64,000 bases of DNA from Kiritimatiellia bacterium (GTDB lineage: Bacteria; Verrucomicrobiota; Kiritimatiellia; RFP12; UBA1067). Positions 25,029 to 59,158 of this stretch are shown in pieces. The stretch spans positions 5,929-69,928 of the forward strand of contig JBAYXX010000005.1 in assembly GCA_041673345.1 (NCBI GenBank), in the 5' to 3' direction. The notes under the pieces were generated by a model. That model saw nothing but the letters and a program-made list of their open reading frames with translations. It was not told the origin of the DNA and did not search any database. Position 1 is the first letter of the stretch, and every line of letters starts with the position of its first letter. Both the position numbers and the translations under genes were made by a program.

Positions 25029-25030
25029 TT

Positions 25031-25184: not shown

Positions 25185-25320
25185 AATTTCGCCCCATTCG
25201 GCCCATCTGTCCCATTCGGCCCATCTGTCCGCAGTACCCTAACCACCTTCAGCCTAAACTCCTAAACTCCTCGCTACTCCTATTCCGCCGAGCGGAATCA
25301 CATAATTCGGCGACGCCGAA

Positions 25321-27057: not shown

Positions 27058-27090
27058 AGTTTGGTTTATAGCTTGTAGTTTGTCTATATC

Positions 27091-27126
27091 TCGGGGTCGG
27101 GGTCGCGGTCGGAATCGGTATCGAAT
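27091..27126. repeat. hexamer tandem repeat (TCGNNN x6) upstream of gspE
   Basis: TCGGGG TCGGGG TCGCGG TCGGAA TCGGTA TCGAAT. Related arrays lie at 16006-16033 and 44301-44374. Confidence 0.8.
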
Positions 27127-27171
27127 AGTCAAGGAACGCGATTTACACCTCCGATGCAGCTGGCCTTTAAG

Positions 27172-27984: not shown

Positions 27985-27992
27985 AGTTTTTA

Positions 27993-28024
27993 GGGGTTAG
28001 GGGTTAGGGGATAGGGGATAGGGG
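27993..28024 (+). repeat. heptamer microsatellite forming a canonical G-quadruplex motif
   Basis: GGGGTTAGGGGTTAGGGGATAGGGGATAGGGG gives five G4 runs separated by 3-nt loops. It fills the 47-nt spacer between the PilO-like stop (28032) and the PilP-like start (27984). Confidence 0.9.
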
Positions 28025-28031
28025 TTGGAGG

Positions 28032-30529: not shown

Positions 30530-30561
30530 AAAAAATCGGTTTCGCTAGTCAGTGGTTCAAG

Positions 30562-30603
30562 AGTCAGGAGTCAGGAGTCAGAAGTCAGAATTCAGGAGTC
30601 ACT
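30562..30603. repeat. heptamer tandem repeat (AGTCAGG-like x6) at the secretin / pilM-like junction
   Basis: AGTCAGG AGTCAGG AGTCAGA AGTCAGA ATTCAGG AGTCACT. It overlaps the secretin stop codon at 30599-30601. Confidence 0.85.
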
Positions 30604-32809: not shown

Positions 32810-32875
32810 GTGAGTTTCCTGTTAGTTTATTTTTACAACCACTCAGTGGTTACAAAGAGGAGGTTAAAAGTGTTG

Positions 32876-42579: not shown

Positions 42580-42668
42580 CAGCCGTGATCAGGTGACTGG
42601 CTCGCGGTTTGGAAACCGCCCTTTGCTGAGCACTGAATATACAATGAGAGAGTTTAGGAGTGTTGGAA

Positions 42669-44108
42669 ATGAGTGATCAAAAGGTTTCGATGGCAGACTT
42701 TGAGAGTTTGTTGAATGAGCAGTTGTTAAACTATCGCAATGGGTTTGATCCGGGCGAACGTGTCAAAGGTGTTGTCACGAACATCACCCCTGAATATGTG
42801 ATTCTGGATGTGCGCGCTAAACGGGAGGGACTTGTGCCGGTCGAGGATCTGACCAGCCCTGAGGAGGGAGAGGTGCGAGTCGCGATTGGCGATATTGTTG
42901 ATGTTATCTTCTCCGGCATGTCGGGCGGCGCCTTTCTCTTTACCAGTAAAATTAGCTCCCGATCCGCGGTTGACCGGAGTTTGCAAGACGCTTACAACCG
43001 TGGAATGCCGGTTGAAGGCAGGGTTGAGAAAGAGATCAACGGCGGCTATGAGGTTAGTGTGAATGGTCAGCGGGCCTTCTGCCCGTTCTCGCAGATCAAT
43101 CTCTTTCGGCAGGAGGAAGCAGTTTATATTGGTAAAACCTTTATGTTCATGATCTCCGAATATGATCACGACGAGCGCGGTGTCAATGTGATTGTCAGCC
43201 GCCGTCAGTTGATGGAGCAGGAGCGTGAGGCCCAGCGCTTGGAGTTGGTTGAGGATTTGTTTGTGGGGATGATTGCCCCCGGAACCGTGACGCGTATCAT
43301 GGAGTTCGGGGTATTTGTCGATCTCGGCGGAGCTGAGGGATTAATCCCCTTGCGCGAGGTTGCCTGGGCTAGGGATGCCAAGGTCGAGGAGATTGTCAAG
43401 CCCGGCGATAAGGTTGAGGTGGAGATCAAAGCTCTGGACTGGGATGCCAACAGAATCTCGCTCAGTTTGCGCGGTGCTCAGGGCGATCCCTGGGATGATG
43501 TGGTGGCCAAATATCCGGTCGGCTCGGTCTGCATTGGTAAAATCACTAAAGTGGAGCGATTTGGCGCTTTCGCTGAGATTGGTGACGGCGTGGAAGGTCT
43601 GATTCCTATCAGCAAACTTGGCAATGGGCGGCGCCTGATGTCGGCCCGCGAGGTTGTCAATGAGGGTGATGAAATCGAACTTCAGGTGGAGGAGATCGAC
43701 ACCGATCGCCGCCGGATCTCTTTGAAACCGATGGATCGTCGCTTTGAGACGCTCGACACCAGCGCACTCTCTGTTGGGAGTAAGGTCGAGGGTTTTGTTG
43801 AATCCATCCAGCCCTTCGGCATCTTTGTGCGCCTATCTGAAACTCAGACAGGTCTGCTGCATATCAGCGAAACTGAAATACCGAAGGGCGGCAACCCAGC
43901 CGCCAAACTCGAGCTGAAATTTCCGCCAGCCGAGAAAATTACGGTTGTGGTCAAGTCCATCGAGGGGGAACGTATCTCATTGACCGTGCCGTCCCTTTGG
44001 GAGAGTCGGAGCAATGAAGATGGTGAGGTGAGCCTCTCCGCCTGGAATAAATCCAACTCCAGCGCGGCCTCATTAGGGTCGCTGGGCAGTTTGTTTGACG
44101 GGCTTTAG
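42669..44108 (+). CDS. rpsA: S1 RNA-binding domain protein (ribosomal protein S1-like, ~5 S1 repeats)
   Basis: ORF 42660..44108. The ATG at 42669 lies 8 nt after AGGAG. It has repeated S1 OB-fold signatures (VKGVVTNI, VEGRVEKE, APGTVTRIMEFGVFVDLGG, CIGKITKVERFGAFAEIG, VEGFVESIQPFGIFVRL). Confidence 0.7.
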   Translation: MSDQKVSMADFESLLNEQLLNYRNGFDPGERVKGVVTNITPEYVILDVRAKREGLVPVEDLTSPEEGEVRVAIGDIVDVIFSGMSGGAFLFTSKISSRSAVDRSLQDAYNRGMPVEGRVEKEINGGYEVSVNGQRAFCPFSQINLFRQEEAVYIGKTFMFMISEYDHDERGVNVIVSRRQLMEQEREAQRLELVEDLFVGMIAPGTVTRIMEFGVFVDLGGAEGLIPLREVAWARDAKVEEIVKPGDKVEVEIKALDWDANRISLSLRGAQGDPWDDVVAKYPVGSVCIGKITKVERFGAFAEIGDGVEGLIPISKLGNGRRLMSAREVVNEGDEIELQVEEIDTDRRRISLKPMDRRFETLDTSALSVGSKVEGFVESIQPFGIFVRLSETQTGLLHISETEIPKGGNPAAKLELKFPPAEKITVVVKSIEGERISLTVPSLWESRSNEDGEVSLSAWNKSNSSAASLGSLGSLFDGL

Positions 44109-44228
44109 CAGACGAAAAGTTGAAAATTCGGCGTGGATAGTCATTCAGGCTGCCATCATCCTATATATACCGCGCCTCCAATTGCACAAAGTTGGAACTG
44201 GGTCCAAGTAACGGTGTCGGACGATAGT

Positions 44229-44252
44229 GTAGTAGCCGCTCTATGAGCGGCA
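44229..44252. repeat. solitary REP-A copy
   Basis: GTAGTAGCCGCTCTATGAGCGGCA, downstream of the S1 gene. Confidence 0.8.
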
Positions 44253-44620
44253 TATGCTGGATGAAGGTCGGTTTCGCAGTCGATAGCTGGTGCCATGCAA
44301 CTCGGAGTCGGAGTCGGCATCGGGGTCGTTTTTTATGCGTTTTTCAATACCGATTCCGATAGCGACCCCGACCCTTGGTAATAGGCCAGCTTTGTCGCTG
44401 ACGTTCGGCTTCACCTTTCTCCAGTTTTTTGAAGGATTTTTGTTGAGGGGTATTGTTGCATGGGACATTTTTTTGTCCAATGTGTTGTCGCATTTCATAT
44501 TACAATTCAGCGAAAATTAATACGCTAGATTACGCCCTTGTTTTATGAGGTATTTTTTGTTAAAATATAAGTTTTATAGCCCAAAATTTAAATTTACTTA
44601 AAAATTTACTTAAGTAGTAT

Positions 44621-45916
44621 ATGTTTTTCAAAAAAAATAAACCTGTCATACGCGAACGAAATAATCATTGCATATCCCGTACTAATATCGACCCTGATGC
44701 GGTTAAAGTGCTGTATCGGCTCTCAAACTGCAATTATGTCTCCTATATGGTGGGTGGGAGTGTGCGTGATCTGTTGCTAGGACGCCGCCCCAAGGATTTC
44801 GATATCAGCACTGACGCTCAGCCCGCGCAAATTCGCAAGCTGTTCCGTAACTGCTTTTTAATTGGCCGGCGATTCCGGCTGGCACACATTGTTTTTGGGC
44901 GCAAGGTAATTGAAACCAGTACCTTCCGCGCCCAGCCCGTGTCAACAGAGGGCGATGACGCTCTTTATCAGAGTGAGGATAACACCTTTGGAACTCCGGA
45001 GCAGGATGCCAAAAGGCGCGATTTTACGGTAAACGGTCTTTTTTATGATATAAAAACCTTCGCAGTGATCGATTATGTGAATGGCCTCAAAGACCTCGAG
45101 CAAAAAGTGATCCGCAGCATTGGCGATCCCAATGTACGCTTTCGTGAAGACCCTGTGCGTATGATGAGGGCTGTGAGGTTTGCGGCTAAACTGAATTTTA
45201 CAATCGAAAAGGGCTGCTGCAAGGCACTAAAAAAGCACCATGCTGACATTCTCAACGCCTCCGTGCCGCGCGTCTGTGAGGAAGTTTATCGCCTGTTTTC
45301 TGTGAATGCAGCTGAGAAGGCTTTCAAATTAATGTGGGAGTTCAAGTTGCTTGAAGATCTCCTGCCGGAAATCAATGAATATATCAACCGCAGCGGCAAA
45401 GAGACCTCACCGCTATGGCGCTATCTTACCGCGCTTGACCGCATGCCCGAGAACGGCAGTTTTTCAAATGGGGTGCGCACTGCGGTTCTATTTTATCCCC
45501 TGTTCCTTGAACAGTGCAGCCGTGAGAGTGAAGCCACGCCCCATGGGCGGATTAACCGCGCGCATGTTGCCCGCAAGGTCCTGAACCACCTAGTGAACTC
45601 ACTGCACATTCCCAAGGCGATCTTTTATGCAGCGGTGTCGGCCATGGATCTGGTTCCCCGTTTTGATCCAATGCCTACTAGAGCCAGAGTAAATCGTTTT
45701 GTGAGAAACAGCAATTTTGAGGATGCGTTTATCTTTAAGCAAATTGTGGCCGCAGCCGAAGGCGACCCTTTTGCAACCCTAACGCAATGGGAAGAGCTTT
45801 GCAACGAGGTTGAGCCGGACGAAATCGTTGTTCAAAGCCGCGAAAAGGGAGGTAGACCTCCCCAGCGGAAGCGCCGCCATCCAAGGCGAAGCCGACAAAA
45901 GCAGAAGCAGGCTTAG
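44621..45916 (+). CDS. pcnB: poly(A) polymerase I / tRNA nucleotidyltransferase family (PcnB-like) with a basic tail
   Basis: 431 aa. Contains MVGGSVRDLLLGRRPKDFDIST...LIGRRFRLAHIVF...DAKRRDFTVNGLFYD, typical of PcnB. The C-terminus is RKRRHPRRSRQKQKQA. Confidence 0.8.
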   Translation: MFFKKNKPVIRERNNHCISRTNIDPDAVKVLYRLSNCNYVSYMVGGSVRDLLLGRRPKDFDISTDAQPAQIRKLFRNCFLIGRRFRLAHIVFGRKVIETSTFRAQPVSTEGDDALYQSEDNTFGTPEQDAKRRDFTVNGLFYDIKTFAVIDYVNGLKDLEQKVIRSIGDPNVRFREDPVRMMRAVRFAAKLNFTIEKGCCKALKKHHADILNASVPRVCEEVYRLFSVNAAEKAFKLMWEFKLLEDLLPEINEYINRSGKETSPLWRYLTALDRMPENGSFSNGVRTAVLFYPLFLEQCSRESEATPHGRINRAHVARKVLNHLVNSLHIPKAIFYAAVSAMDLVPRFDPMPTRARVNRFVRNSNFEDAFIFKQIVAAAEGDPFATLTQWEELCNEVEPDEIVVQSREKGGRPPQRKRRHPRRSRQKQKQA

Positions 45917-45934: not shown

Positions 45935-47596
45935 TTAGCGTGCGGATTTGCGGTTGCGCAGTTTAAACAATTGGGTTTTGACCAAGGTGTAAAGCTCATG
46001 AATCTCACTGATTTTAAGGGCATAGGTTGCCGCGAGGTAAATAGCCACAAAGACCGCGCTGGCGATGCCGAGCTTGAGCAGATCACCCATACGATTAGCG
46101 AGTTCAATGTGGGTTGTCACACTGGGGTGAATGAGCCAGGCTGTTAAGCGGGAGAGGGTCAACCAAGCCCCCAGCCCAGCCACGACCGAGGCTGCTGTGA
46201 TACGAATCAGGAAAGTCCAGGTCTCTTTAAAAGGAAAGACTGGGGCGCTTTGCTTGAGAAAGAGGGTGAGCGCAAAGCTCTTCAGTATCCTAGAGAGGGT
46301 GAAACCGCCAGCGATAAAACAGAGCAGCAGCACTCCGTTCGCGCCAGCGTAAACAAAGCCCGCCCAGCTGAACAGAATACTTGTCAGCGAGAAGAACATG
46401 CCTAACAGAGTCACAGTCCACATGCGGCGGTTGGCAAAAAAGGCCTGCATGGTCAGTGCCTCAATGGCCCCGGCAGGCAGCACGAAGGTGTAAAACGAGA
46501 GCGCCAGCGCGGTGCGGTGCACTGCGGTCTCATCAAAAAACCCGCCTTTAAAGACAAAGGCTGTAAACGGCACGGAAATAACGGCAATCAGGAGAGCGAA
46601 GGGAATAAAAGTTGCCAGCAATATACGTCCGAAATGGGTCACTAGCCGGCCAAGCTCAGCCTGGTTTTTTTTGTCAACCAATTCGCAGAAAAAGGGGAAA
46701 ACCGCGATCGACAGAGTATAGGGCACCAACCAGTGCAGTGTGCTCTGAAGTTTCCGTCCCATGGTGTTGGCCTGCATCAAACCGCTCTCTTCCAAGGAGC
46801 TGAGAAAATAGACGTTGTTACTAACATCTCTGACTTTAGCGACAAGAATCCCGGCCAGCAGCGGGAGCATCAACCAGAGGAGTCTTTTAATAAAGGGATG
46901 GTGAAAGTTGAACTCCACCTTAAAATACCCCAGCTTATCGCGTAGTCCATAAAGATGGGTCGCCAATTTACAGACCGAGCCAGCCACAATACCCCACGCA
47001 AGCATCTGCGCGTTATCTTTAGAGAGAAAGCACCCGACCACTAAAAAACCAACTGCGCAGAATTTCCAGACAGCATCGCCGAAGGCGGCCAGAAAAAAAC
47101 GTTTGTAAGAGTTCAGCAGAACGTAGGTGGTGGAACCCAGAGAAAGCCCAATGATCGCGGGTGAGAGCATTTTAAGACTATGTGCTGCCAAATCAAAGCG
47201 CTCTGGAGACTTTGCGCTGCTCCATTTGGTGCAGATTGTAACCGCCCACTGCGGAGCGAAAAAGAAAAACAGGGCCACGACAATCAGCAGCACGAACTGC
47301 GTACTCAGCACAGTGTTGGCAAAACTCCAAGCGCGCCTGATCCTCCCCCTGTCGATCAGACGCATAAACAGAGGCAGAAAAGCGGGCGCAAGCGCCTCCT
47401 CACTGACAAGAAAAAGCATAAAAACACCATTTTCAAAGGCAAAGGTGTAAACAACGTCGAAGGTCTCTGGAGGCAGCAGTCGGCCCATGACCTGAGCCTG
47501 GATGAAACCGGCCAATTTAAAGAGAATGTGGGCGATCAGAACTAAAGCACTCGCCTTAAAAATTCTTTTTTCCATCTTTGTCCGAGTTGTCGCCAT
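45935..47596 (-). CDS. murJ: lipid II flippase MurJ (MviN family)
   Basis: 553 aa with about 14 TM segments. The N-terminus KASALVLIAHILFKLAGFIQAQVMGRLL and MOP-superfamily-like topology fit MurJ. Confidence 0.75.
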   Translation of the reverse strand: MATTRTKMEKRIFKASALVLIAHILFKLAGFIQAQVMGRLLPPETFDVVYTFAFENGVFMLFLVSEEALAPAFLPLFMRLIDRGRIRRAWSFANTVLSTQFVLLIVVALFFFFAPQWAVTICTKWSSAKSPERFDLAAHSLKMLSPAIIGLSLGSTTYVLLNSYKRFFLAAFGDAVWKFCAVGFLVVGCFLSKDNAQMLAWGIVAGSVCKLATHLYGLRDKLGYFKVEFNFHHPFIKRLLWLMLPLLAGILVAKVRDVSNNVYFLSSLEESGLMQANTMGRKLQSTLHWLVPYTLSIAVFPFFCELVDKKNQAELGRLVTHFGRILLATFIPFALLIAVISVPFTAFVFKGGFFDETAVHRTALALSFYTFVLPAGAIEALTMQAFFANRRMWTVTLLGMFFSLTSILFSWAGFVYAGANGVLLLCFIAGGFTLSRILKSFALTLFLKQSAPVFPFKETWTFLIRITAASVVAGLGAWLTLSRLTAWLIHPSVTTHIELANRMGDLLKLGIASAVFVAIYLAATYALKISEIHELYTLVKTQLFKLRNRKSAR

Positions 47597-47739: not shown

Positions 47740-49677
47740 TCAATCCACCATCTGCATATCGCATAATTCGCGGTAATCCCCATTCTGCGTGTAAAGTTCA
47801 TTATGGGTTCCGATCTCCTTGATGGCCCCTTTTTCCAGCACAATAATCTTGTCGGCACTCTTAATCGTGCTCAGTCGATGCGCGATAGCAAATGTGGTGC
47901 GGTTGGTCATCAGCGTATTGATGGCATCCTGAACCAAACGTTCAGTGACTGTGTCGAGCGCGCTAGTGGCCTCATCGAGGATCAGAATTCGGGGGTTCTT
48001 GAGGATTGCTCTGGCAATGGCAATACGCTGACGTTCGCCACCGCTGAGTAGAAAGCCCTTCTCGCCGGTCACACGCTGATATCCATCAGCATGCTCTAGA
48101 ATGAATTTGTGAGCGTTAGCCATCCGGGCGGCAGCCTCGATTTGCTCCTGCGTGGCATTCGGTGTGCCATAGGCGATATTGCAGGCAATGGTGTCGTTAA
48201 AAAGAACGGTTTCCTGAGTGACAACCCCGATCAGGCGCCGTATATCCGCAATATCTATATCCCTAACATCGACTTCGTCCATCAGCACCGCGCCGGAGGT
48301 AACATCATAGAAGCGTGCCAGTAGGTTGGCGATCGTTGTTTTACCGGAACCAGTGCCGCCGACCACTGCCACCAGCGAACCACAGGGGATGTCAAAGGTG
48401 ATATTTTTAATGGTTGGCTCTTCAGAGTTATGATAGTGGAAAACCACATTTTCGAAGCTGACGCGCATGGTGAAATCCTCTTTTTTAACGGGATTTTTTG
48501 CGATGGGCAGCGAGCAATCGGTGTCTAGCAATGAAAAAATACGGGCCAGCGCAGCGCGTCCGCGTTCAATCTGCGGCTGCAGCTGACTGATTTGCTTTAC
48601 TGGTCGGTAGATAATAGCCAGCGGCACCAGCAACGGTGTGATCTCGGCTAGGCCAATTTTTTTGATCTCAAAACAATAAAAAACAAAGGCGCACCCGAGA
48701 AAGATGCCAATGCACTCAACTGCGGGCGGCACCAGAAGTTCAACGCGCAGCGCTTTGAGCACACTCTTGAGATAGTAGCTGTTGACCGCTCGATATTTCT
48801 CGACCTCCACCGCTTCGGTGAAATAAGCTTTGACCACACGGATACAGGTCAAATTCTCATGTATCCGAGAGATGACCATAGATATCCTCTCCATTGCTTT
48901 TTTAGCCCATTTGCGCACCTTGGCACCAAAAAACGCCATTGGCAGAAGAAAGAGTGGAAAACCCAACACAACCACTGCCAACACCTCAAGGATATTGTTC
49001 TTGATCGCAAAGTGAACCATGAAGCCAACGGCGAAGAGGATTTCAAAGGGCGCGCGACACACATGGGCCAGAGTGTTAGATATAACGCCATCAACCTGCT
49101 GAGGATCATGAGTGCAGCGGCTCATAATCTGGCCGACATCGGTGCGACCGAAAAACTCCAGCGATTGTTTTTGCAGATGATTAAAGAGATCTACTCGAAA
49201 ATCCTGCACAACCCGTGCCCCTGCCCAACGCAGGCAGTAATTATTCAGGTACATGACAATTATTTTAAAGAGCACCACCACCGGAATAATAACCAGCGCA
49301 ATTAACTTCAACAAGTTAGTGATATTACCTTGCTCATCGCGCAGCTCGACACCGAAACGAGCGGCCAGCGACTCTGCCTGCCTGAACCACGACGGCATAT
49401 TTTGCTCTGCTTGAACTATCTCGCCGGTCGCATCCATAGTAGTATCCAGCGGCTCGCGCGCAGCTGCTTTCCCCTGGCTGGGCAATGGCGGCGCACTCTC
49501 AGTCATCACCTCATTAAGAGCGGGCTGAATCATCTGAAAGACAGGCACCCAGGCACCTGCCGTGAGTGTGCCGGCCAGCAATCCAATGATCAGCCGTACC
49601 CGGTATTTCACCGCATAGTGATATAACCGACCGTAGGCCTCTTTGGCCGAGTAATCCCTGTCAAAAAATTCAGCCAT
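47740..49677 (-). CDS. ABC transporter permease/ATP-binding fusion (MsbA-like exporter)
   Basis: 645 aa with a 6-TM domain followed by an NBD. NBD motifs are Walker A GGTGSGKTT, signature LSGGERQRIAIARA and Walker B ILILDEATSALD. Confidence 0.85.
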   Translation of the reverse strand: MAEFFDRDYSAKEAYGRLYHYAVKYRVRLIIGLLAGTLTAGAWVPVFQMIQPALNEVMTESAPPLPSQGKAAAREPLDTTMDATGEIVQAEQNMPSWFRQAESLAARFGVELRDEQGNITNLLKLIALVIIPVVVLFKIIVMYLNNYCLRWAGARVVQDFRVDLFNHLQKQSLEFFGRTDVGQIMSRCTHDPQQVDGVISNTLAHVCRAPFEILFAVGFMVHFAIKNNILEVLAVVVLGFPLFLLPMAFFGAKVRKWAKKAMERISMVISRIHENLTCIRVVKAYFTEAVEVEKYRAVNSYYLKSVLKALRVELLVPPAVECIGIFLGCAFVFYCFEIKKIGLAEITPLLVPLAIIYRPVKQISQLQPQIERGRAALARIFSLLDTDCSLPIAKNPVKKEDFTMRVSFENVVFHYHNSEEPTIKNITFDIPCGSLVAVVGGTGSGKTTIANLLARFYDVTSGAVLMDEVDVRDIDIADIRRLIGVVTQETVLFNDTIACNIAYGTPNATQEQIEAAARMANAHKFILEHADGYQRVTGEKGFLLSGGERQRIAIARAILKNPRILILDEATSALDTVTERLVQDAINTLMTNRTTFAIAHRLSTIKSADKIIVLEKGAIKEIGTHNELYTQNGDYRELCDMQMVD

Positions 49678-49682: not shown

Positions 49683-50615
49683 TTACCCTCGCCCCCCCAG
49701 CCAGCGTTCAGCCTCTAGAGCGGCGATACACCCAGTTCCAGCGGCAGTCACCGCCTGTTTGTAATGGCGATCCTGGACATCACCAGCGGCAAAGACCCCC
49801 TCCCGTGAGGTTCTGGTGTTGTTGGTTTTGACATAACCCTCACTATCCAGATCAAGATAATCAGCGAAGGGCGCAGTGTTGGGAGTATGGCCGATGGCAA
49901 TAAAAACCCCCTGCACCGGAAGCTCTGTGATCGCATTACTTTTGACATTTCTAACCTTCAAAGCAGTGACCTCCCCCTTTTCCACATCCAGAAACTCTTC
50001 GGGTACTGAGTTCCATAGAATATCGATGTTAGCAGCGTCGAGTACCCGCTGCGCCATAATCTTGGAGGCGCGGAATTCATCGCGCCGATGAATCACAGTG
50101 ACTTTACATCCGATCCGCGAGAGATAGAGCGCTTCCTCCATGGCGGTGTCGCCACCGCCGACAACGGCAACATCCCGACCCTTATAAAAGGAGCCATCAC
50201 AGGTGGCGCAGCCGGAGACTCCCTTGCCGATCAAAGCCTGCTCGGAGTCTAGCCCCAGATAGCGCGCACTGGCGCCAGTGGCTATAATCAAAGCCTCGGT
50301 CTCCATCTCACCCTCAATCATCAGCGTCAGCTTCTTGACATCCCCTGAGAGATCACAGGCGGTGAGTTCATCCGTCAAAACACGCACACCGAGCCTTTCG
50401 GCCTGTTTTCGCATGGTTTCCACCAGCTCATTTCCATCCACAGGCTCCTCGAATCCGGGGAAGTTCTCAACATCCGTGGTCTGGGTCAACTGCCCGCCGG
50501 GTGTCATCCCGGTGATCACAACAGGCGCCAGGTTCGCACGCGCGGCATAGATCGCCGCTGTCATGCCAGCTGGTCCGCTGCCAATAATCACAACTTTTTC
50601 CATTGTTTTCTCCAT
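49683..50615 (-). CDS. trxB: thioredoxin-disulfide reductase
   Basis: 310 aa. Has VVIIGSGPAGMTAAIYAAR, the redox CATC motif, VVGGGDTAMEEALYL and GVFAAGDV. Confidence 0.9.
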   Translation of the reverse strand: MEKTMEKVVIIGSGPAGMTAAIYAARANLAPVVITGMTPGGQLTQTTDVENFPGFEEPVDGNELVETMRKQAERLGVRVLTDELTACDLSGDVKKLTLMIEGEMETEALIIATGASARYLGLDSEQALIGKGVSGCATCDGSFYKGRDVAVVGGGDTAMEEALYLSRIGCKVTVIHRRDEFRASKIMAQRVLDAANIDILWNSVPEEFLDVEKGEVTALKVRNVKSNAITELPVQGVFIAIGHTPNTAPFADYLDLDSEGYVKTNNTRTSREGVFAAGDVQDRHYKQAVTAAGTGCIAALEAERWLGGRG

Positions 50616-52334
50616 TTATGTGTAACGCAGCACCTCGTCCACGGTTGTGTAACCATCGAGAACATTGCGGATCGCATCCTCGCGCAAAGTCCGCATTCCC
50701 AGCTCACGCGCTTTTTCCCTGATATACAGCGTAGGGCGCCGCTCATTGATCAGCATCCGGATAGGGTCAGTGACACGCAGATATTCAAAAACACCTTTCC
50801 GCCCTTTGTAGCCAGTGCTGTTGCATTTTGTGCAACCGCGTCCATAGAAAAACTGGCGATCTCCAATATCATCCTGGGTTAAATCAAGTTTCTGAATGGT
50901 TTCAAGGTCAGGCGTGTAACCCACTTTGCAGTTGAGACAGATGGTACGCGTTAATCGCTGACCGAGCACCCCTTCCAGCGTGGATGAGATCAAGTAGGGC
51001 GCGATGTTCATATCGCACAAGCGGGTCACAGCGCCCGCAGCGTCGTTGGTGTGAAGTGTGCTGAAAACAAAGTGGCCGGTCAATGAAGCCTGAACTGCGA
51101 TTTCAGCGGTTTCCTTGTCGCGAATCTCACCAATCATCATGATATCAGGATCCTGCCGCAAAAAAGCGCGCAGCACTCTGGCAAAGGTGTTGCCAGCGGA
51201 CGGATTGATCTGCACCTGGATAATACCGTCGATATCGTATTCAACCGGCTCCTCGGCTGTCAGCAGCTTGGATTCGATCTTGTTAATTTTGCGCAGACAT
51301 GAGTAAAGCGTAGTAGTCTTGCCGGAGCCGGTCGGTCCGGTTACAATCAGGATGCCATTCGGTTTTTCGATATCCATAGTGACTGCTTCATAAATATCCT
51401 CCGGCAGCCCGACATTCTCAATATCCAGCGAGACGACCGAGCGATCAAGAACACGCAGCACGACACTCTCACCATGCGCAGTCGGCAGGCAGGAGACACG
51501 CAGATCCACATGATGGCCGGCCACTGTCAAAGAGATACGCCCATCCTGCGGAACACGGCGCTCGGCAATATTAAGCCCTGACATAACTTTAATACGTGAG
51601 ATAATCGCCAGCGCCAGACGTATGGGGGGCGGCGACATCTCGTAGAGCGCCCCATCCACCCGGTAACGGATACGGAATGATGTTTCAAAGGGCTCGAAAT
51701 GAATGTCAGAAGCTCTGTCTGTCACCGCCTGATAGAGCACCAGATTCACAAATCGAATCACCGGGGCGGCTGCGGCGGCATTTTCCAAGCTGACGGCGTC
51801 AGAGCCGTCCACCATGAGCGTGCTGTCAGAGGCCATATCCGACTCAATGCCATCGATCATATCAGCGATGGAGGCGCTGTCCTCACCGTAATTAGCACGG
51901 ATACGCTCCAGCAGATCCTGCTCTTTGGCGAAAGCGAACTGCACGTCGCGAGTGAGTACAAACATCAACTCATCCATCACATGCGGGTCAAGCAGACTAG
52001 ATGTTGCTAATGTGACAGTGCCTGCGGTGGCACTTACAGGCAGCACATTGTACATCCGCGCCACGTTGCCAGGCACACTTCCGATTACATCGGGATCAAG
52101 AGAGGCGATCTCCAGATCAATGACATCACACCCCTGATAGGAGGCCATCATACCCAACAGATCCTCTTCGGAAACATAGCCATTGTTGATCAAAATTTTG
52201 CGAATGGAGTTTCCTGTGCGCTGTTGTTCTTCACGTATCTCCTCGCTCTGCTGCATGTCGATCACGCCATTACTGATCGCCAGATCAATCAAAGGATCGT
52301 AAAGCGCTGTTTCTGTGAGTGCCTTGTTATCCAT
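50616..52334 (-). CDS. PilB/GspE-family assembly ATPase (second copy of the triplet)
   Basis: ORF 50616..52379 trimmed to MDNKALTE (ATG at 52334, GAGGG upstream, 4 nt after the pilT stop). Has a T2SSE_N domain, Walker [20 protein letters not shown] and FSTLHTND. The tetracysteine motif is CLNC...CTKC. Confidence 0.85.
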   Translation of the reverse strand: MDNKALTETALYDPLIDLAISNGVIDMQQSEEIREEQQRTGNSIRKILINNGYVSEEDLLGMMASYQGCDVIDLEIASLDPDVIGSVPGNVARMYNVLPVSATAGTVTLATSSLLDPHVMDELMFVLTRDVQFAFAKEQDLLERIRANYGEDSASIADMIDGIESDMASDSTLMVDGSDAVSLENAAAAAPVIRFVNLVLYQAVTDRASDIHFEPFETSFRIRYRVDGALYEMSPPPIRLALAIISRIKVMSGLNIAERRVPQDGRISLTVAGHHVDLRVSCLPTAHGESVVLRVLDRSVVSLDIENVGLPEDIYEAVTMDIEKPNGILIVTGPTGSGKTTTLYSCLRKINKIESKLLTAEEPVEYDIDGIIQVQINPSAGNTFARVLRAFLRQDPDIMMIGEIRDKETAEIAVQASLTGHFVFSTLHTNDAAGAVTRLCDMNIAPYLISSTLEGVLGQRLTRTICLNCKVGYTPDLETIQKLDLTQDDIGDRQFFYGRGCTKCNSTGYKGRKGVFEYLRVTDPIRMLINERRPTLYIREKARELGMRTLREDAIRNVLDGYTTVDEVLRYT

Positions 52335-52338
52335 AAAA

Positions 52339-53424
52339 TTACCCTCGTTGCTGCAACTCTTGTTTAAGCTTTTGAACAACTGTTTCAGGATCTTTTGCTT
52401 TCGTGATCAAGTCATCATATGAAATCATCCCAGCTAGATAGAGTTTCATCAAATGCGAGTCAAGCGTCACCATGCCGAACTTGTGACCTGTCTGAATATC
52501 CGAATCAATCTGGAAGGTCTTATTGTCGCGGATACGGGAGCGTATCGCCGGCGTGGAGATCATGATTTCAAACGAAGCCACCCGCCCTGGTTTATCAACC
52601 CGCTTGAGCAGGAGCTGTGAGATCACAGCGACCAGGCCAACAGAGAGCTGGGTTCTAACCTGCTCCTGCTGATCCATTGGAAACGCGTCCACAACACGGT
52701 CAACCGTGGCCGTGGCGCCGGTGGTGTGCAGCGTGGCGAAAACCAGATGGCCGGTTTCAGCGGCGGTGATTGCGGCCTGCATGGTTTCCAGATCGCGCAT
52801 TTCACCCACCAGAATTACATCCGGGTCCTGGCGCAGAGCACGCCGGATAGCCTCAGCGAAACTCGGAACGTCATGGCCAACCTCACGTTGGGTGACAATA
52901 CAATTTTTATGCGGGTGGTAGTATTCAATTGGGTCTTCAACCGTGATGATATGCAGAGCGCGCTGCTGGTTGATGACATCAAGCATACTGGCCAAGGTGG
53001 TGGATTTGCCGCAACCAGTCGGCCCGGTCACAAGAATCAATCCCCGAGGTTTAAAGAGCAACTCTTTCACCTGCTCGGGCAGGCCGATTTGTTTCAGCGT
53101 CAAAAGGTCACTGGGAATCAAACGCAACACAATGCCGAAACGTGAACGTTCCTTGAATACCGAAACACGAAAACGGGCGGCATCACCGAAAGGCAGTGCG
53201 AAATCGGTGCCGCCGCTCTGTTCGACCTCCAGCCGACCATCCTCTTTGAGGATCGAAAGTGCCAGGCGTTCGGTATCTTCCGCGGTTAACACCGGAATAT
53301 CCAAAGGTGTTAAAGCGCCGTGAATACGCAGCATTGGCGCCACGCCAACTCTGATATGCAAATCGGACGAACCTTCGTCAACCGTTGCCTGCAGCAACTC
53401 ATTCATAGTAAGTTCGTTATTCAT
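52339..53424 (-). CDS. pilT: type IV pilus twitching-motility (retraction) ATPase PilT
   Basis: 361 aa with no N-terminal T2SSE_N domain. Has Walker [31 protein letters not shown] and [10 protein letters not shown]. Length is typical of PilT. Confidence 0.85.
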
Positions 53425-55118
53425 TATTCAGCATCTCCCATTGTTGCTCTCAAAACTTCCTGGAGCGATGTCATGCCTGAAGCAACCTTCAACATGCCAT
53501 CCTCTCGCAAGGTTCTCATGCCCATCTCCCGGGCCCGCGCGCGCAAAACTGAGGCTGGCGCCTGATCAAAAATCAATCTCTGGATCGTGTCGTCCATCAA
53601 AAAAATCTCAAAAATACCTTTTCGCCCTTTATAACCGGATTGGCTGCAAGCGGAGCAGCCTTTGCCTTTAAACACCTTCCCTGTTGTTATGCGTTGTCCC
53701 ATGGCACCCAGCATTTTTATCTCACGCTCGGTGGGGGTGTAATCCGCGCGGCATTTATCGCAGATGGCGCGCACCAGCCGCTGCGCCATGGCCGCCCGTA
53801 TGGCGGATGCCACGAGGAAAGGCTTAACGCCGATATCCAGCAGACGGGTAACCGCACTGGGTGCGTCATTTGTATGCAGCGTGCTGAAAACTAAGTGACC
53901 GGTCAAGGCGGCCTCCATCGCGATATCGGCTGTCTCCGCATCACGAATTTCTCCGATCATAACAATATTAGGAGCTTGTCGCAGAATAGACCGCAGCGCA
54001 GCGGAGAAGTCCAGCCCCACATCCCGATTTACCTGTACCTGATTGATGCCTTCCATCTGATATTCAACAGGGTCTTCAACCGTGATGATCTTACGGTCTG
54101 GCAGGTTGATCTGCCCCAGACAGGCGTAGAGCGTGGTCGTCTTGCCGGAACCGGTCGGCCCTGTCACCAGCAGTACGCCATCGGGCAAGTTGATCAGGCG
54201 CTCAAATTTATTCTGGTCATCAGAGAGAAATCCCAACTGCGGCAGTCCCAAACTCAGATTTTCCTTGTCCAAAATACGCATCACAATACTCTCGCCATGG
54301 TTGGTCGGAACTGCGGAGACACGCAAATCCAGCTCACGTCCCTGCACCTTGACTTGAATACGCCCATCCTGAGGAACGCGTTTTTCAGAGATTTTCATAT
54401 TGGACATGATCTTGACCCGGCTCAGAATGGCGGCCTGCAGCCGTTTGGGCGGTGTATCCATTTCGCGCAGCACACCGTCAATCCGATAACGCACGCGGAA
54501 GGTGCGTTCGAGCGGCTCCAAATGAATATCAGAGGCCCGCATTTTACAGGCCTCCATGATGATTAAACTCACCAGACGGATCACCGGGGCGTCCGAGTCG
54601 CCCGCGTCCGGATCAGTTTCATCGAGCGCAAGCTTTTGCTCAATGTCTAAATCCTCACCTCCGAAGCCAAACTTGCTCTCAAAATCTTCTGGGTATAATT
54701 TTTCAAGTGCGCTCTTCACCTCACTGGCGGGAGCTATAACAGCCTCAATGTTCTTATTCAGCACATAGCGGAGGCTGTCAACCGTGTCGTAGCCCATCGG
54801 GTCGCCCAGCGCGACAGTGATTGTGTCTTCAGTGCAATACACCGGCACCACCCCGTACTTGCGGGCGACATCTCCGGGGATCGTATCCTTGACAGCGATA
54901 TCGATCGAATCCACATCCACATGAACATACTCCAAACCAAACTGATACGCGATCAGAGAGAGAACATCATCCTCATCCACAACCCCGCTTTGCATCAGAA
55001 TATCGAGTGTGGTTTCCCCTTCTTCCTTGAGAGAGCCTTTGACAGCATCGACCTGCTCAGACGTCACATACCCCTGTTCCAGCAATAAATCTAAGACATA
55101 GTCATCATTTGAAGTCAC
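53424..55118 (-). CDS. PilB/GspE-family assembly ATPase (first copy of the triplet)
   Basis: ORF 53424..55133 begins with TTG. The more likely start is the GTG at 55118, 7 nt after GAGGAG. Has a T2SSE_N domain, [19 protein letters not shown] and FSTLHTND. The tetracysteine motif is CDKC...CSAC. Its stop overlaps the pilT ATG by 1 nt. Confidence 0.85.
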
Positions 55119-55153
55119 AAATTCTCTCCTCAATCAAAAGTGCGTAAAATCGC

Positions 55154-56587
55154 TCAGCTTAATTCAGCAAATTTTTTAGCGATCATTTGGTTAACGACCT
55201 TGGGGTCAGCCTTGCCTTGGCTCAACTTCATCACCTGGCCAGTCAGAAAACCAGCTGCCGCCTTTTTGCCTGCTAAAAAGTCCGCAACTGATTTTTCATG
55301 AGCAGCAAAAACCTCATCAATATAGGATTGCAGCACTCCGCAATCGCTGACCTGCGCCAGCCCGCGCGACTCCACTAGAGCCATCGGCTCGCCGCCCTGC
55401 CGGAACAGCTCGGGTAAAAGCTCTTTAGCAGTGGGGCCGTTGATCACACCCCGCGTGACCAGGGTTATCAGCCCCGCCAGCGCTTCGGGGGTAAGCGCAC
55501 ATTGATCAATCGTCAGCCCGCTCTCCGAAATCAGACACATCACATCTGTCATGAACCAATTGGAGAGGATCTTGGCCTCACCGCAAATCGCCGCTGCGGC
55601 CTCAAAAAAATCCGCGTTCGGCTTTTCATCCGCGAGCACACCAGCATCATACTCTGGAATGTTGTACTCTTTGGCCATGCGTTCGCGCCTGACAGAGGGC
55701 AGCTCCGGTAGAGTGGAGCGCCAACCCTCCACCAACTGCTCGCTCAGCACCACTGACACCAGATCAGGCTCGGGGAAGTACCGATAGTCATGCGCGTTCT
55801 CTTTAGAGCGCATGGCTTGGGTCTCGCCCAGCTCCGCCTCCCAGCGCCGTGTCTCCTGCACGAGCTGGCCCCCATTGCGAACAACATAAAGCTGGCGCTC
55901 AATCTCGTAGTTCAGGGCAGCATAAATACCCTTGAATGTGTTCATATTCTTGATCTCAACCCGGGTGCCCAGCTCAGCTTGCCCTTCAGGGCGGACACTG
56001 ACATTGACATCCGAACGCATGTTGCCCTCCTCTAGGTTGCACTCGCTGACTCCAGCGTACACCAGAATTTGACGCAAGTTGTGGAGGTATGCCATCGCCT
56101 CATCAGGAGAGGTGAGATCAGGCTCTGAAACAATCTCCATCAGAGGCATCCCGCACCGGTTAAAATCAACTCCGCTATGACGCGCGTAATGGATGATCTT
56201 GCCGGCATCCTCCTCCTGATGGATATGGTGAATGCGAATCAGCCGCGCACCATCAGGGGTGCCAATTGTCACCCCGCCGCCAACACACAACGGCAGCTCC
56301 TGCTGCGTGATCTGGTAATTTTTCGACATGTCCGGATAAAAATAGTTCTTGCGATCAAAGGTGCTGGTGTGGTTGATCGCACACCCCAGCATCAACCCGG
56401 ATATCACACATTGCTTCACAGCCTCACGGTTCATAACTGGCAGCGCGCCAGGATAGCCCAGACAAACCGGACACACATTGGTGTTAGGCTCAGAGCCAAA
56501 CTCTGTTGAGCAGCCGCAGAACATCTTCGTACAAGTCTTGAGATGCACATGTGTCTCTAAACCAATTGTTATCAGATACTTACTCAT
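55154..56587 (-). CDS. gatB: Asp-tRNA(Asn)/Glu-tRNA(Gln) amidotransferase subunit B
   Basis: 477 aa. Contains IGLETHVHL...KMFCGC...NTNVCPVCLGYPGALP and a C-terminal YqeY-like domain. Confidence 0.92.
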   Translation of the reverse strand: MSKYLITIGLETHVHLKTCTKMFCGCSTEFGSEPNTNVCPVCLGYPGALPVMNREAVKQCVISGLMLGCAINHTSTFDRKNYFYPDMSKNYQITQQELPLCVGGGVTIGTPDGARLIRIHHIHQEEDAGKIIHYARHSGVDFNRCGMPLMEIVSEPDLTSPDEAMAYLHNLRQILVYAGVSECNLEEGNMRSDVNVSVRPEGQAELGTRVEIKNMNTFKGIYAALNYEIERQLYVVRNGGQLVQETRRWEAELGETQAMRSKENAHDYRYFPEPDLVSVVLSEQLVEGWRSTLPELPSVRRERMAKEYNIPEYDAGVLADEKPNADFFEAAAAICGEAKILSNWFMTDVMCLISESGLTIDQCALTPEALAGLITLVTRGVINGPTAKELLPELFRQGGEPMALVESRGLAQVSDCGVLQSYIDEVFAAHEKSVADFLAGKKAAAGFLTGQVMKLSQGKADPKVVNQMIAKKFAELS

Positions 56588-56654: not shown

Positions 56655-58097
56655 TCACCTGCCATCCCGCATTTTTTCATAAGCATGCGCCACACTCAAA
56701 ACACGATTCTCACTAAAAGCCTGCCCCAAAACTTGAAGGCCAATCGGCAAACTATCCGTGGTGCTGCCGCAAGGCAGCGAGATACCGCAGATCCCAGCCA
56801 GACTCGCCGGCACAGTGAAGGCATCACCCAAATAGCTCTTTAAAAGATCCTGCTTCGCCGCCCCTATTTTATAAGCAGCCGTGGGCGAAACCGGGGTCAT
56901 CAAAACATCACAGCTCTCAAAAGCCCGCGTGTAATCCTCCCGGATCAAGGTGCGGGCCTTCTGCGCTTTAATATAGTAAGCATCATAATAGCCGCTGCTC
57001 AACACATAGGTTCCCAATATAATCCGGCGCTTGACCTCAGCTCCAAAACCCTCTGCCCGGCTGGCGGCATACAGTTCATAAACCGAACCGGGCATGGCTG
57101 TCTGGTGGCCATAGCGCACGCCATCAAAACGGGCTAAATTGGCTGAGGCCTCCGCGTTCGCCAGAATATGATAAACCGCAATTGCATACTCGGTGTGCGG
57201 CAGCGAGAGATCAACTATCTCAGCACCAGCGGCTCGGCAGACCTCAACCGCACTCAACACCGCTGCAATGACCTCTGGATCTGAGCCCTCGATAAAATAC
57301 TCACGCGGCAGCCCAATCCGTACACCTTGCATATTGCCAGTCAACCCGGCCTCATAATCAGGAACCTTGAGATCCAAGGTCGTGCCGTCATGCGGATCAT
57401 AACCAGCCAACGCGCGTAGGAGAATCGCCGCGTCTTCAACGGTCTTGGTCAAAAGGCCTACCTGATCCAATGAAGAGGCATAGGCGGCCACACCATAGCG
57501 CGAAACCCGTCCATATGAAGGCTTCAAGCCCACACACCCGCAAAAAGAGGCTGGCTGCCGGATTGATCCGCCCGTGTCGGTTCCCAGCGCGGCAAGCGCC
57601 TCGCCGCCGGCCACTGCGGCGGCCGAGCCACCGCTGGAACCACCGGGTACATACTCGAGGTTATGCGGATTGCGTGTGATTTGAAAAGCTGAACTCTCAG
57701 TAGTCGAACCCATGGCAAACTCATCCATATTGGTACGACCCGCGAAAACAACGCCCGCCGAACGCAGCTTGGCTGCCACCGTGGCATCATAAGGCGAGCG
57801 ATAGCTCTCCATCATGCGCGAGGCGCAGCTGCAGCCCTCCCCGTTGACATTGATCACGTCCTTGATCGCAAGCGGCAGACCCAGTAAAGGCGCGTCATCG
57901 CCCGCTGACCGTCTCTGATCCGCCGCTGCGGCCTGTTTCAGAATATAGTCAGCGTCCACCTTGAGATAAGCCTGCAGCTGACCATCTTTCGCACCAATGG
58001 AGCTAAGCAGTGCCTGAGAAAGCTCAACCGAGGAAAACTCTCTTTTCTTGAGGCCCCGCAAGGCGCCTGCCACTGTGAGAATCGCAATATCTTCCAT
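56655..58097 (-). CDS. gatA: Asp-tRNA(Asn)/Glu-tRNA(Gln) amidotransferase subunit A
   Basis: ORF 56655..58127, with Met11 (58097, MEDIAILT) the likely start. The amidase signature is GGSSGGSAAAVA...GTDTGGSIRQPA. Confidence 0.9.
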   Translation of the reverse strand: MEDIAILTVAGALRGLKKREFSSVELSQALLSSIGAKDGQLQAYLKVDADYILKQAAAADQRRSAGDDAPLLGLPLAIKDVINVNGEGCSCASRMMESYRSPYDATVAAKLRSAGVVFAGRTNMDEFAMGSTTESSAFQITRNPHNLEYVPGGSSGGSAAAVAGGEALAALGTDTGGSIRQPASFCGCVGLKPSYGRVSRYGVAAYASSLDQVGLLTKTVEDAAILLRALAGYDPHDGTTLDLKVPDYEAGLTGNMQGVRIGLPREYFIEGSDPEVIAAVLSAVEVCRAAGAEIVDLSLPHTEYAIAVYHILANAEASANLARFDGVRYGHQTAMPGSVYELYAASRAEGFGAEVKRRIILGTYVLSSGYYDAYYIKAQKARTLIREDYTRAFESCDVLMTPVSPTAAYKIGAAKQDLLKSYLGDAFTVPASLAGICGISLPCGSTTDSLPIGLQVLGQAFSENRVLSVAHAYEKMRDGR

Positions 58098-58151
58098 AAA
58101 TCTCTCAATATCAAAATTACAAACCATCCGAGGCGGAAAAAACCCGCTGCA

Positions 58152-58442
58152 TCAAGTGTCCTCAACAATCTTCGGCAGTTTAAACTCGCTCTCTGTACGC
58201 GCCGGAGCATTGGCCAGCGCCTCAGCACGGCTGAGTGAGGGACGGACAACATCCTCCCGAAAAAAATTGGTGGAAACTTGACCATGCATGGTTGGCTGGA
58301 CACCCTCCAGATTCAGGGCGCTGATCTTATTGACATAGCCAACAACCGTCTCCAACTGAGCTTGAAAAAGCTTTTTTTCCTCGGCGGTCAACGCAATCCG
58401 AGCCAGCTCCGCAACATATGCCACATCTATATTTAGACTCAC
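58152..58442 (-). CDS. gatC: Asp-tRNA(Asn)/Glu-tRNA(Gln) amidotransferase subunit C
   Basis: 96 aa with a GTG start, AAGGAG 7 nt upstream. Contains VAELARIALTAEEKKLFQAQLETVVGYV. Position is immediately upstream of gatA. Confidence 0.85.
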   Translation of the reverse strand: MSLNIDVAYVAELARIALTAEEKKLFQAQLETVVGYVNKISALNLEGVQPTMHGQVSTNFFREDVVRPSLSRAEALANAPARTESEFKLPKIVEDT

Positions 58443-58690
58443 CTAAAATCTCCTTGCAGAATGTCAGTCGCTTAAACAACCAACCAGAAAAATAAAACAA
58501 TCATTATATACGCTATAATCACCCAGCACAATTCAAAACACACAAAAAACACCTTAACCAGCGAAATTTCCGTTAGCTAAGGCATAAAAAGCGCATATCA
58601 TCGCAAAAAATCGTCGACCAGCATCGCCGTCCGTTATCGTAAACCGGAGGCGAAGCCGACCTTCAGTAGTTTCCGATTACATCGAGACTT

Positions 58691-58713
58691 GTCCGATTAA
58701 AAATCGGACCTAA
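58691..58713. repeat. solitary, slightly degenerate REP-D copy (inverted)
   Basis: GTCCGATTAAAAATCGGACCTAA. Confidence 0.65.
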
Positions 58714-58802
58714 GTTGCTCCCGCGCCAAAAGCGCGACCTTTTCACTTTTCACTTTCATAAAGAACTACTCGCTAACGTAGCAACCAACATTGCTATAGT
58801 AG

Positions 58803-58851
58803 CCAAGAAAAGCCGGTATCCTGAAGTATTGAGATCCTCAGGATATCCGGC
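58803..58851 (-). terminator. rho-independent terminator after the Lys-rich small ORF
   Basis: The minus strand reads GCCGGATATCCTGA-(14-nt loop)-TCAGGATACCGGC followed by TTTTCTT. It starts 10 nt after the small ORF stop. Confidence 0.6.
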
Positions 58852-58860
58852 TGAGAGAGG

Positions 58861-58965
58861 TTATTTTTTCTTATCTCTTTTAACCTGCTTCTTCTCTTTA
58901 GGGGTCAATTTAGCTTTCTTCTGAGCTTCTTTTTTACCCTTATCCTTTTTTCCTGTGTCGCCCAT
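58861..58965 (-). CDS. 34-aa lysine-rich small protein (candidate)
   Basis: Not in the ORF track because it is under 60 aa. The minus strand reads AAAGGAGGAAGAT-ATG, then MGDTGKKDKGKKEAQKKAKLTPKEKKQVKRDKKK-TAA. It has a near-consensus SD at ideal spacing and its own terminator. Confidence 0.5.
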   Translation of the reverse strand: MGDTGKKDKGKKEAQKKAKLTPKEKKQVKRDKKK

Positions 58966-59158
58966 ATCTTCCTCCTTTAACATTAATGGATTATCGACTT
59001 AAAGGTATGATACCTGCCACAGATATCCAATACCACTATTAAAGTAACGCGAATATAAATTATTATGACAACTCTGTCAAGCTAGACCCCGTTTAAAATC
59101 CTCTAATTCCGCTCAAGAAATACGGCGTTGCCTCTATTCCGAATTCAGCCGCTCTGCC

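Follow-up and report, generated by a model that had tools for sequence, protein, structure and literature searches.

Introduction

Textbook accounts usually assign the extension of type IV pili to a single PilB hexamer. The closest described gene arrangement is the canonical pilB-pilT-pilC order of Myxococcus and Geobacter, which is present in cyanobacteria as pilB1-pilT1-pilC. Here, we analyze a 64,000-nt stretch of DNA (the window) from a metagenome-assembled genome (MAG) of a Kiritimatiellia bacterium (GenBank assembly GCA_041673345.1), in which genes for two paralogous extension-type ATPases, pilB1 and pilB2, flank a gene for the retraction ATPase PilT. The window resembles the canonical arrangement in its gene families and ancestral gene order. 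However, its group has a second full-length extension-type ATPase gene between pilT and pilC, the gene for the platform protein, and in the lineage of the window pilC has moved to a pilin operon. As judged from gene content and phylogeny, pilB1-pilT-pilB2 probably encodes the cytoplasmic motors of a single type IVa pilus machine, with two ATPases for extension and one PilC.

The only experimental precedent found for two extension motors on one machine is the PilB and TfpB pair of Acinetobacter baylyi, in which two phylogenetically distinct extension-type ATPases likewise stand beside one PilT-retracted pilus. Both are needed for normal piliation, and neither can replace the other (PMC8213720). 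A division into initiation and processive extension has been proposed for this pair, with hetero-oligomers left as an open question (PMC11656802). PilB2 of the window is not TfpB; the window pair apparently arose by duplication inside its own lineage and flanks pilT in one operon. PilT and PilU are likewise two paralogous hexameric motors that have neighboring genes and work on the same pilus (PMC6762196, PMC6821130), and such pairs offer a precedent for a division of labor between motor paralogues. In PilT-PilU pairs the retraction side is duplicated, whereas in the group of the window it is the extension side. GspE of type II secretion shares a similar domain layout and the four-cysteine motif with the window PilBs. 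Unlike GspE, these are linked to pilT and, ancestrally, to pilC rather than to gspC-M.

For Planctomycetes, Verrucomicrobia, and Kiritimatiellae, our literature search returned no description of a pilB-pilT-pilB-pilC operon or of a conserved pair of PilBs; genome papers on these groups merely list "PilB, PilT, PilC". In an array study of Rhodopirellula baltica, pilT (RB12773), pilB (RB12774), and pilC (RB12781) were co-induced by salt stress, and these genes fit the operon by locus-tag order alone. A conserved pilus motor with two extension ATPases, spanning several phyla, appears to be undescribed.

Results and Discussion

Identity of the Three ATPases

The window occupies positions 5929-69928 of contig C5 (72,438 bp) of the source MAG, G000, which comprises 4.63 Mb in 312 contigs at 88.8% completeness and 4.9% contamination; L and G numbers below denote sampled loci and genomes. 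All three motor genes lie on the minus strand. The upstream paralogue, pilB1, extends over 53424-55118 from a GTG codon or 53424-55133 from a TTG codon (564-569 aa). The GTG at 55118 is the likelier start because AGGAG lies 7 nt upstream of it and the resulting 564 aa match the orthologue length. The gene for PilT (361 aa) is at 52339-53424, and the downstream paralogue, pilB2 (572 aa), is at 50616-52334. The pilB1 stop codon and the pilT ATG overlap by 1 nt (TAATG), and 4 nt separate pilT from pilB2.

An earlier note on this DNA, made from the sequence alone, described two full-length paralogous assembly ATPases, each with a T2SSE_N domain and a tetracysteine motif, on either side of one retraction ATPase. 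Profile searches and the cysteines themselves agree with this description. PilB1 matches Pfam T2SSE (PF00437) with 464 bits and MshEN (PF05157), the domain formerly named T2SSE_N, with 52 bits; the corresponding values for PilB2 are 442 and 57 bits. PilT scores 172 bits on Pfam T2SSE and 452.6 bits on the NCBIfam PilT/PilU model (TIGR01420), above its subfamily cut-off of 319.1. The two PilBs are 44% identical to each other. Their best matches among solved structures are Geobacter and Myxococcus PilB, at 509 bits for PilB1 and 464 bits for PilB2, and for both proteins PilB structures beat GspE structures over the full length. The NCBIfam PilB model (TIGR02538, equivalog cut-off 675.65) gives 633.2 bits for PilB1 and 575.2 bits for PilB2, and the GspE model (TIGR02533, equivalog cut-off 630.25) gives close values of 618.2 and 604.5 bits, so that both proteins fall below both cut-offs. 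Membership in TfpB was considered and rejected, as the two proteins score 478.1 and 425.0 bits on NF053534, far under the equivalog cut-off of 850. Gene context associates both PilBs with pilT and pilC: both genes adjoin pilT, their orthologues occur in pilB1-pilT-pilB2-pilC operons, and an orthologous PilC is encoded on contig C21 of the source MAG.

Both PilBs are predicted to be catalytically active. Walker A, the Asp box, the GE..RD Walker B, the His box, the arginines, and the four cysteines are at least 90% conserved in the clades of PilB1 and PilB2. The cysteines read CDKC...CSAC and CLNC...CTKC in the two window proteins, and the CxxC...CxxC pattern is kept in both clades. One segment sets the clades apart. 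Directly before the Walker B strand, 30 of 33 PilB1-clade sequences read RQAPN, whereas PilB2, single PilBs, and PilT read RQDPD; the PilB1 clade thereby lacks both acidic residues of the segment. This loss could be taken to mean that one paralogue has no catalytic role, or a regulatory one, and gates its partner as a pseudo-ATPase or sensor, perhaps by way of cyclic di-GMP (c-di-GMP) bound to MshEN, since the domain stands at both N-termini and is related to c-di-GMP receptors. We regard such a gating role as very remote. The intact Walker A, catalytic Glu of Walker B, Asp box, His box, and arginines in both clades do not support a pseudo-ATPase reading for either protein. Binding of c-di-GMP was assessed with the tandem 24-residue MshEN motif RLGxx(L/V/I)(L/V/I)xxG(L/V/I)(L/V/I)xxxxLxxxLxxQ, of which two copies are expected, in strict or relaxed form (PMC5013675). 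Neither window PilB contains a strict or a relaxed copy, and this test rules out c-di-GMP control via MshEN in these two proteins. At least one relaxed copy was detected in 2 of 33 PilB1 and 11 of 32 PilB2 sequences; the roughly one-third of PilB2 sequences that retain one are all from Planctomycetota-type loci, and this pattern may have to do with specialization.

Two-PilB Operons across Phyla

The distribution of the arrangement was surveyed by scanning one genome per species with a PilT alignment, which yielded 80 loci with organism names. The closest named record by PilT is from a Kiritimatiellae MAG and is 81% identical. Wherever the contig extends far enough, the loci closest by PilT have the order pilB1-pilT-pilB2-pilC; these come from Kiritimatiellae, Verrucomicrobiota (including Opitutia), both classes of Planctomycetota, Hydrogenedentota, Omnitrophota, and UBP18. 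Lentisphaerota have pilB1-pilB2-pilT-pilC instead (L052 and L055). Most of the more distant pilB-carrying loci, from Acidobacteriota, Actinomycetota, Cyanobacteriota, Gemmatimonadota, Nitrospirota, Zixibacteria, and Saccharibacteria, have a single-PilB pilB-pilT-pilC order, and the two full-length Myxococcota loci have only pilB-pilT. Four loci labeled Agathobacter rectalis, Candidatus Acidoferrum, Klebsiella sp., and Chitinophaga sp. (L051, L053, L068, and L085) carry pilB1-pilT-pilB2(-pilC) of the type found in the Planctomycetota-Verrucomicrobiota-Chlamydiota (PVC) group. These are most likely contigs of misbinned or mislabeled MAGs, because their tree positions lie inside the Kiritimatiellae, Verrucomicrobiota, or Planctomycetota clades.

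The earlier note had proposed a phylogeny of the PilB/GspE paralogues in the window, and two trees that agree with each other, a quick one with 96 rows and a careful LG+C20 one with 47, place PilB1 and PilB2 in two clades. In the LG+C20 tree the two form a joint clade (support 99/97) with every single PilB outside it. The PilB2 clade has support of 85/96 and its core 99/92; the PilB1 core has 99/95. Lentisphaerota, Kiritimatiellae with Verrucomicrobiota, Phycisphaerae, and Planctomycetia branch alike within each clade. Because each clade repeats the branching of the phyla, we infer that PilB1 and PilB2 are ancient sister paralogues that arose by a single duplication before the Planctomycetota and the Verrucomicrobiota/Lentisphaerota/Kiritimatiellia lineages split.

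A bolder proposal is that the pair constitutes an obligate two-paralogue extension motor, with both PilBs on one PilC and possibly in a mixed hexamer, that predates the divergence of Planctomycetota, Verrucomicrobiota, Lentisphaerota, Kiritimatiellia, and allied candidate phyla. We advance it tentatively, as a proposition that falls just short of an even chance. If true, it would be a second case of two extension motors, far older and far more widespread than PilB and TfpB of Acinetobacter, and one in which the Kiritimatiellia motor genes are additionally parted from the platform gene and sit inside a string of essential genes. With sister extension ATPases kept around PilT in several phyla, the question of why there are two extension motors becomes testable in planctomycetes and verrucomicrobia that are amenable to genetics, and these organisms offer a natural system for asking if secretion ATPases can form mixed hexamers.

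Conservation of the Motor Genes within Kiritimatiellia

The triplet is intact in 19 of 20 relatives fetched from the same order, and all 20 carry pilT and pilB2. In the remaining genome, G007, pilB1 lies on another contig and its product is 74% identical to PilB1 of the window. Across these relatives the PilT orthologues are 63-97% identical, or 67-97% by another alignment. Within the genus, identities reach 83-97% for PilB1, 86-96% for PilB2, and 84-97% for PilT, as compared to 68-90% for the product of gatA and 60-89% for an msbA-like protein, both encoded near the triplet; the motor proteins are thus more conserved within the genus than either of these neighbors.

A census covered 120 further Kiritimatiellia genomes with completeness of 85% or more, with orthologues called at E ≤ 1e-170; these genomes are related, and the counts do not represent independent events. 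Both PilBs are present in 105 of them, neither in 10, and only one in 5, so that the paralogues are jointly present or absent in 115 of 120. Among the five genomes with one PilB, four are MAGs in 260-780 contigs. Both genes are on the same contig in 102 census genomes, and in 101 of those the gap between them is 1082-1248 bp, the size of pilT. The genomes without PilB1 and PilB2 (G042, G043, G061, G062, G063, G088, G098, G109, G119, and G137) are 91-98% complete. G043, G061, G088, G109, and G119 belong to family f25, where all five sampled genomes (2.2-2.9 Mb) lack both PilBs. It looks as if the whole motor module has been lost in some Kiritimatiellia lineages.

Joint presence or absence of this kind, together with the conserved 1-nt and 4-nt junctions around pilT, would be expected if PilB1 and PilB2 formed one mixed hexamer, for example of alternating subunits, an obligate hetero-oligomer whose gene coupling ensures equal synthesis. 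The common form of the operon likewise has one pilC per two pilB. Each clade has its own conserved patches in the N2 and C-terminal domains, among them RQAPN of PilB1; the patches are complementary between the paralogues, and in PilB hexamers these two domains pack against each other across neighboring subunits. Hetero-oligomers have been raised as a possibility for PilB and TfpB as well, in the review PMC11656802. However, all solved structures of PilB, PilT, and PilU among the matches are single-protein hexamers, and the title of PMC6821130 describes PilT and PilU as homohexamers. Moreover, pilT rather than the second pilB holds the middle of the gene order, and pilB1 is parted from pilT-pilB2 in G007. 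On balance, an obligate mixed hexamer is unlikely, and two homohexameric extension motors serving one machine is the reading that we prefer.

Location of the Platform Gene

The earlier note drew attention to the lack of a platform gene in the window. No pilin or pilMNOPQ gene adjoins the triplet, and a T2SSF profile search returned no match beside it or anywhere else on contig C5, which rules out a platform gene on the contig just outside the window. The platform that seems to be missing is encoded elsewhere in the genome. When all contigs of the source MAG were searched with the T2SSF and T2SSE profiles, T2SSF matches were detected on C21 (two genes), C14, C27, C30, C48, and C277; the C48 and C277 matches, each of which touches the end of its contig, may be the halves of a single gene, so that the genome has about six platform genes. 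These searches give four two-domain platforms as compared to six to seven PilB/GspE-type ATPases, with three PilT-type ATPases besides.

One platform gene, C21:43188-44492, encodes a two-domain PilC of 434 aa with no ATPase gene adjoining; a gene for a 356-aa GspG-like pilin and further genes for N-methyl proteins follow it. The PilC operons of G007, G008, and G028 are the same kind of pilin operon and end in a gene for a protein of about 1000 aa. Of four relatives compared, three retain the pilC-pilin operon, and in G023 a match was obtained for just the first pilin gene downstream of pilC. In a platform tree of 58 rows, made by a quick method, the C21 PilC and its orthologues from G007, G023, and G028 nest (support 100) among the PilC proteins encoded directly after pilB2 in Verrucomicrobiota and Lentisphaerota. 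All 26 operon-linked PilC proteins and the Kiritimatiellales orthologues form one clade (support 97), and the other platforms of the source MAG branch elsewhere. By this phylogeny, the C21 gene is the pilC that formerly ended the motor operon and that now heads a pilin operon. A platform gene at the head of a pilin operon explains, for annotation purposes, pilus ATPases that seem to be orphans.

The window also encodes a fourth ATPase of this superfamily, at 25321-27132 on the minus strand, which is GspE-like (Pfam T2SSE, 410 bits) and is not part of the motor module. The earlier note counted four AAA+ secretion ATPases in the window. The fourth is real, but it belongs to a separate type IV filament operon of 17 kb (16958-33739) that encodes a secretin (30599-32809), a PilM-like protein (28787-30529), a GspG-like protein, and four N-methyl pseudopilins. 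We take all four to be PilT/VirB11-type secretion ATPases rather than AAA+ proteins in the strict sense. No platform gene was detected by the T2SSF search in this operon, and the excess of ATPases over two-domain platforms in the source MAG bears on its platform-less state. In the LG+C20 tree, the 25321-27132 ATPase groups with another from the source MAG, C14:46718-48412 (support 100/97), and with neither PilB1 nor PilB2. The two fall inside the clade that holds PilB1 and PilB2 rather than with the single PilBs, at a position that is itself poorly supported, and these secretion-type ATPases may stem from the same lineage-specific radiation.

With more PilB/GspE-type ATPases than platforms in the source MAG and many pilin-like genes in the pilC operon, the two PilBs might serve different filaments. 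One would power the retractile pilus together with PilT, and the other a secretion-type or type IV filament, such as that of the 17-kb operon, or, through the same PilC, another set of pilins. The profile scores lean in this direction, as PilB2 scores slightly higher on the GspE model (604.5 bits) than on the PilB model (575 bits) and PilB1 shows the reverse. Yet the 17-kb operon has its own ATPase, both PilBs are closer to PilB than to GspE structures over their full length, and the pilB1-pilT-pilB2-pilC operon points to a single machine. G028 (2.1 Mb, 98% complete) also argues against separate filaments. Besides a Tad system, it encodes only PilB1, PilB2, and one GspE-type ATPase, which is of the C14 type, and it has no orthologue of the ATPase of the 17-kb operon. 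Its two-domain platforms number just two, one PilC-type and one of the type paired with that GspE in the source MAG; therefore, PilB1 and PilB2 of G028 cannot each own a private platform. We consider an assignment of the two PilBs to different filaments improbable.

A complete pilus machine can be put together from scattered loci of the source MAG, as judged by gene content. Scattered loci are common for type IVa pili, for example in Pseudomonas aeruginosa. The MAG encodes one prepilin peptidase (C36) and six secretins. Downstream of mutL, at C15:29166-36000, are genes for a 562-aa PilM-type protein (PilM_2, 139.5 bits), for proteins of 329 and 352 aa of no known family, and for a 1027-aa secretin with a long Ala/Pro-rich N-terminal region, with the PilM match about 5 kb upstream of the secretin. 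This region is likely a pilus alignment and secretin cluster.

Several further observations were made on the platform loci. The pilC-pilin operon (C21:43188-48968) seems to continue past the end of C21 on contig C26 (about 40658-45438, reversed). In G007 and G008, the best matches of C21:44765-48895 are directly followed by the best matches of C26:44920 down to C26:40658, and a join between the two contigs is probable. The gene at C26:40658 encodes a 1014-aa protein that is a candidate large tip or adhesin protein. In G008 (L135; G008:C17:714500-716100), the PilC orthologue is fragmented into four or five parts that differ in reading frame, and one TAA stands in frame, reflecting either a pseudogene or long-read indel errors. 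The C48 segment (30578-31122, with T2SSF cut at the contig end) and C277:1-2801 (a contig of 2.8 kb with a T2SSF piece downstream of an ATPase) look like one GspE-GspF-secretin-PilT-like cluster that was split by assembly.

Proposed Mechanism

These data allow us to propose how the two-PilB motor might work. Both PilBs would form hexamers with ATPase activity and would alternate on one PilC to drive pilin polymerization, with PilT driving retraction as their antagonist. The two PilBs would share out extension, either as initiation versus processive extension or as responses to different inputs. The conserved 1-nt and 4-nt junctions would hold the three motor proteins at fixed relative amounts, and such tight spacing is compatible with translational coupling. 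The place of the motor genes after gatCAB would reflect inherited order and probably read-through transcription rather than shared function.

Several points weigh against a single machine with two extension motors. Neither PilB reaches a PilB or GspE equivalog cut-off, and the name PilB rests on phylogeny and gene context. The clade-wide change from RQDPD to RQAPN in PilB1 may have a bearing on specialization. Hydrogenedentota and UBP18 PilB1 rows fall outside the PilB1 core in the LG+C20 tree, in an unresolved fork. The C21 PilC may serve the 17-kb operon too, or serve it instead. Finally, the source genome is a MAG of 312 contigs at 88.8% completeness, its counts of platforms and ATPases may be incomplete, and most of the relatives compared are MAGs as well.

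Housekeeping Neighborhood and Transcription Signals

The motor genes stand within a string of nine genes, gatC-gatA-gatB-pilB1-pilT-pilB2-trxB-msbA-like-murJ, that run head to tail on the minus strand from 58442 to 45935. Upstream of pilB1 are gatC (58152-58442; Pfam GatC), gatA (56655-58127; Pfam Amidase), and gatB (55154-56587; Pfam GatB_N and GatB_Yqey). Downstream of pilB2 are trxB (49683-50615; NCBIfam thioredoxin-disulfide reductase, 387 bits, cut-off 343), a gene for an ABC exporter (47740-49677), and murJ (45935-47596; Pfam MurJ). The exporter is called msbA-like rather than MsbA because it scores 447 bits on the MsbA model, under the cut-off of 602. The gap between gatB and pilB1 is 20 nt with the TTG start at 55133 and 35 nt with the GTG start at 55118. 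No nucleotide separates pilB2 from trxB, or 12 nt if trxB begins at its second ATG (50603), and 5 nt lie between trxB and the msbA-like gene. Gene order, strand, and junction lengths had been given in the earlier note and are borne out by sequence reading and Pfam.

That note had also called the linkage of pilus motors to gatCAB and trxB unusual, and comparison of gene order shows it to be common to many Kiritimatiellia families. In family f1, the nine loci that carry the flanks (L021-L029) share the full nine-gene order; in G007, G013, and G015 of the same family, the housekeeping genes are not beside the triplet, or the contig edge intervenes. When 16 further loci from 16 other Kiritimatiellia families were compared, pilC directly follows pilB2 in nine, and the full pilB1-pilT-pilB2-pilC order is present in eight of these. 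The ninth, L151 (G128:C10), reads pilB1-pilB2-pilC, its pilB genes lying just 23 bp apart without an intervening pilT. Six families have no pilC at the triplet and have trxB after pilB2, with the msbA-like gene too in five of the six and gatCAB upstream in four; in one family, the triplet stands alone. Several other families are without these flanks or end at a contig edge. Among the loci of other phyla in the 80-locus scan, no gat, trxB, or msbA-like gene was detected beside the motor genes. The order in L140 (family f32, one of the nine with pilC), gatCAB-pilB1-pilT-pilB2-pilC, can be read as an intermediate in which gatCAB is upstream with pilC still attached, and trxB and the msbA-like gene now hold the place that pilC has in other lineages. 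We read the linkage to gatCAB and trxB-msbA as inherited gene order that arose stepwise from such an arrangement, which by itself implies no functional tie.

A functional tie would mean that a single regulated operon of housekeeping genes unites the pilus motors with Glu-tRNA(Gln) amidotransferase, thioredoxin reductase, and the lipid exporters. Nine same-strand genes with short gaps, the shared order in all nine flank-carrying f1 loci, and internal terminator-like sites that are not above chance in a pattern scan are what such an operon would show. The flanks, however, vary within the class, as pilC and not trxB follows pilB2 in the nine families above and several families lack gatCAB. The triplet junctions stay at a few nucleotides in relatives, whereas the outer gaps (gatB-pilB1 and pilB2-trxB) range from 0 to about 150 nt. 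The linkage is also not seen at motor loci outside the class. A regulated operon that ties these functions together is highly unlikely, and we know of no pathway shared by pili, tRNA amidation, and thioredoxin.

The pattern scan detected 15 sites that resemble promoters, as compared to 11.0 ± 3.4 in shuffled sequence; it used the sigma-70 consensus, which PVC promoters may not follow. Terminator-like sites numbered 17 as compared to 13.9 ± 3.5, so that counts are like those of shuffled sequence. A terminator-like hairpin followed by a T-run was read from the sequence at 58803-58851 on the minus strand (ccggatatcctga...tcaggataccgg cttttctt) and is not among the sites of the terminator scan. 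It is likely the upstream boundary of the gatC...murJ string. The hairpin lies within the 716-nt spacer before gatC (58443-59158, minus strand), which also contains the region's best promoter-like site (59080-59052, 11 of 12 matches) and, ahead of the hairpin, a Lys-rich open reading frame of 34 aa (58965-58861) with a strong AGGAGG. From the order of promoter-like site, reading frame, and hairpin (58851-58803), the gatC promoter should therefore lie in the last ~360 nt of the spacer.

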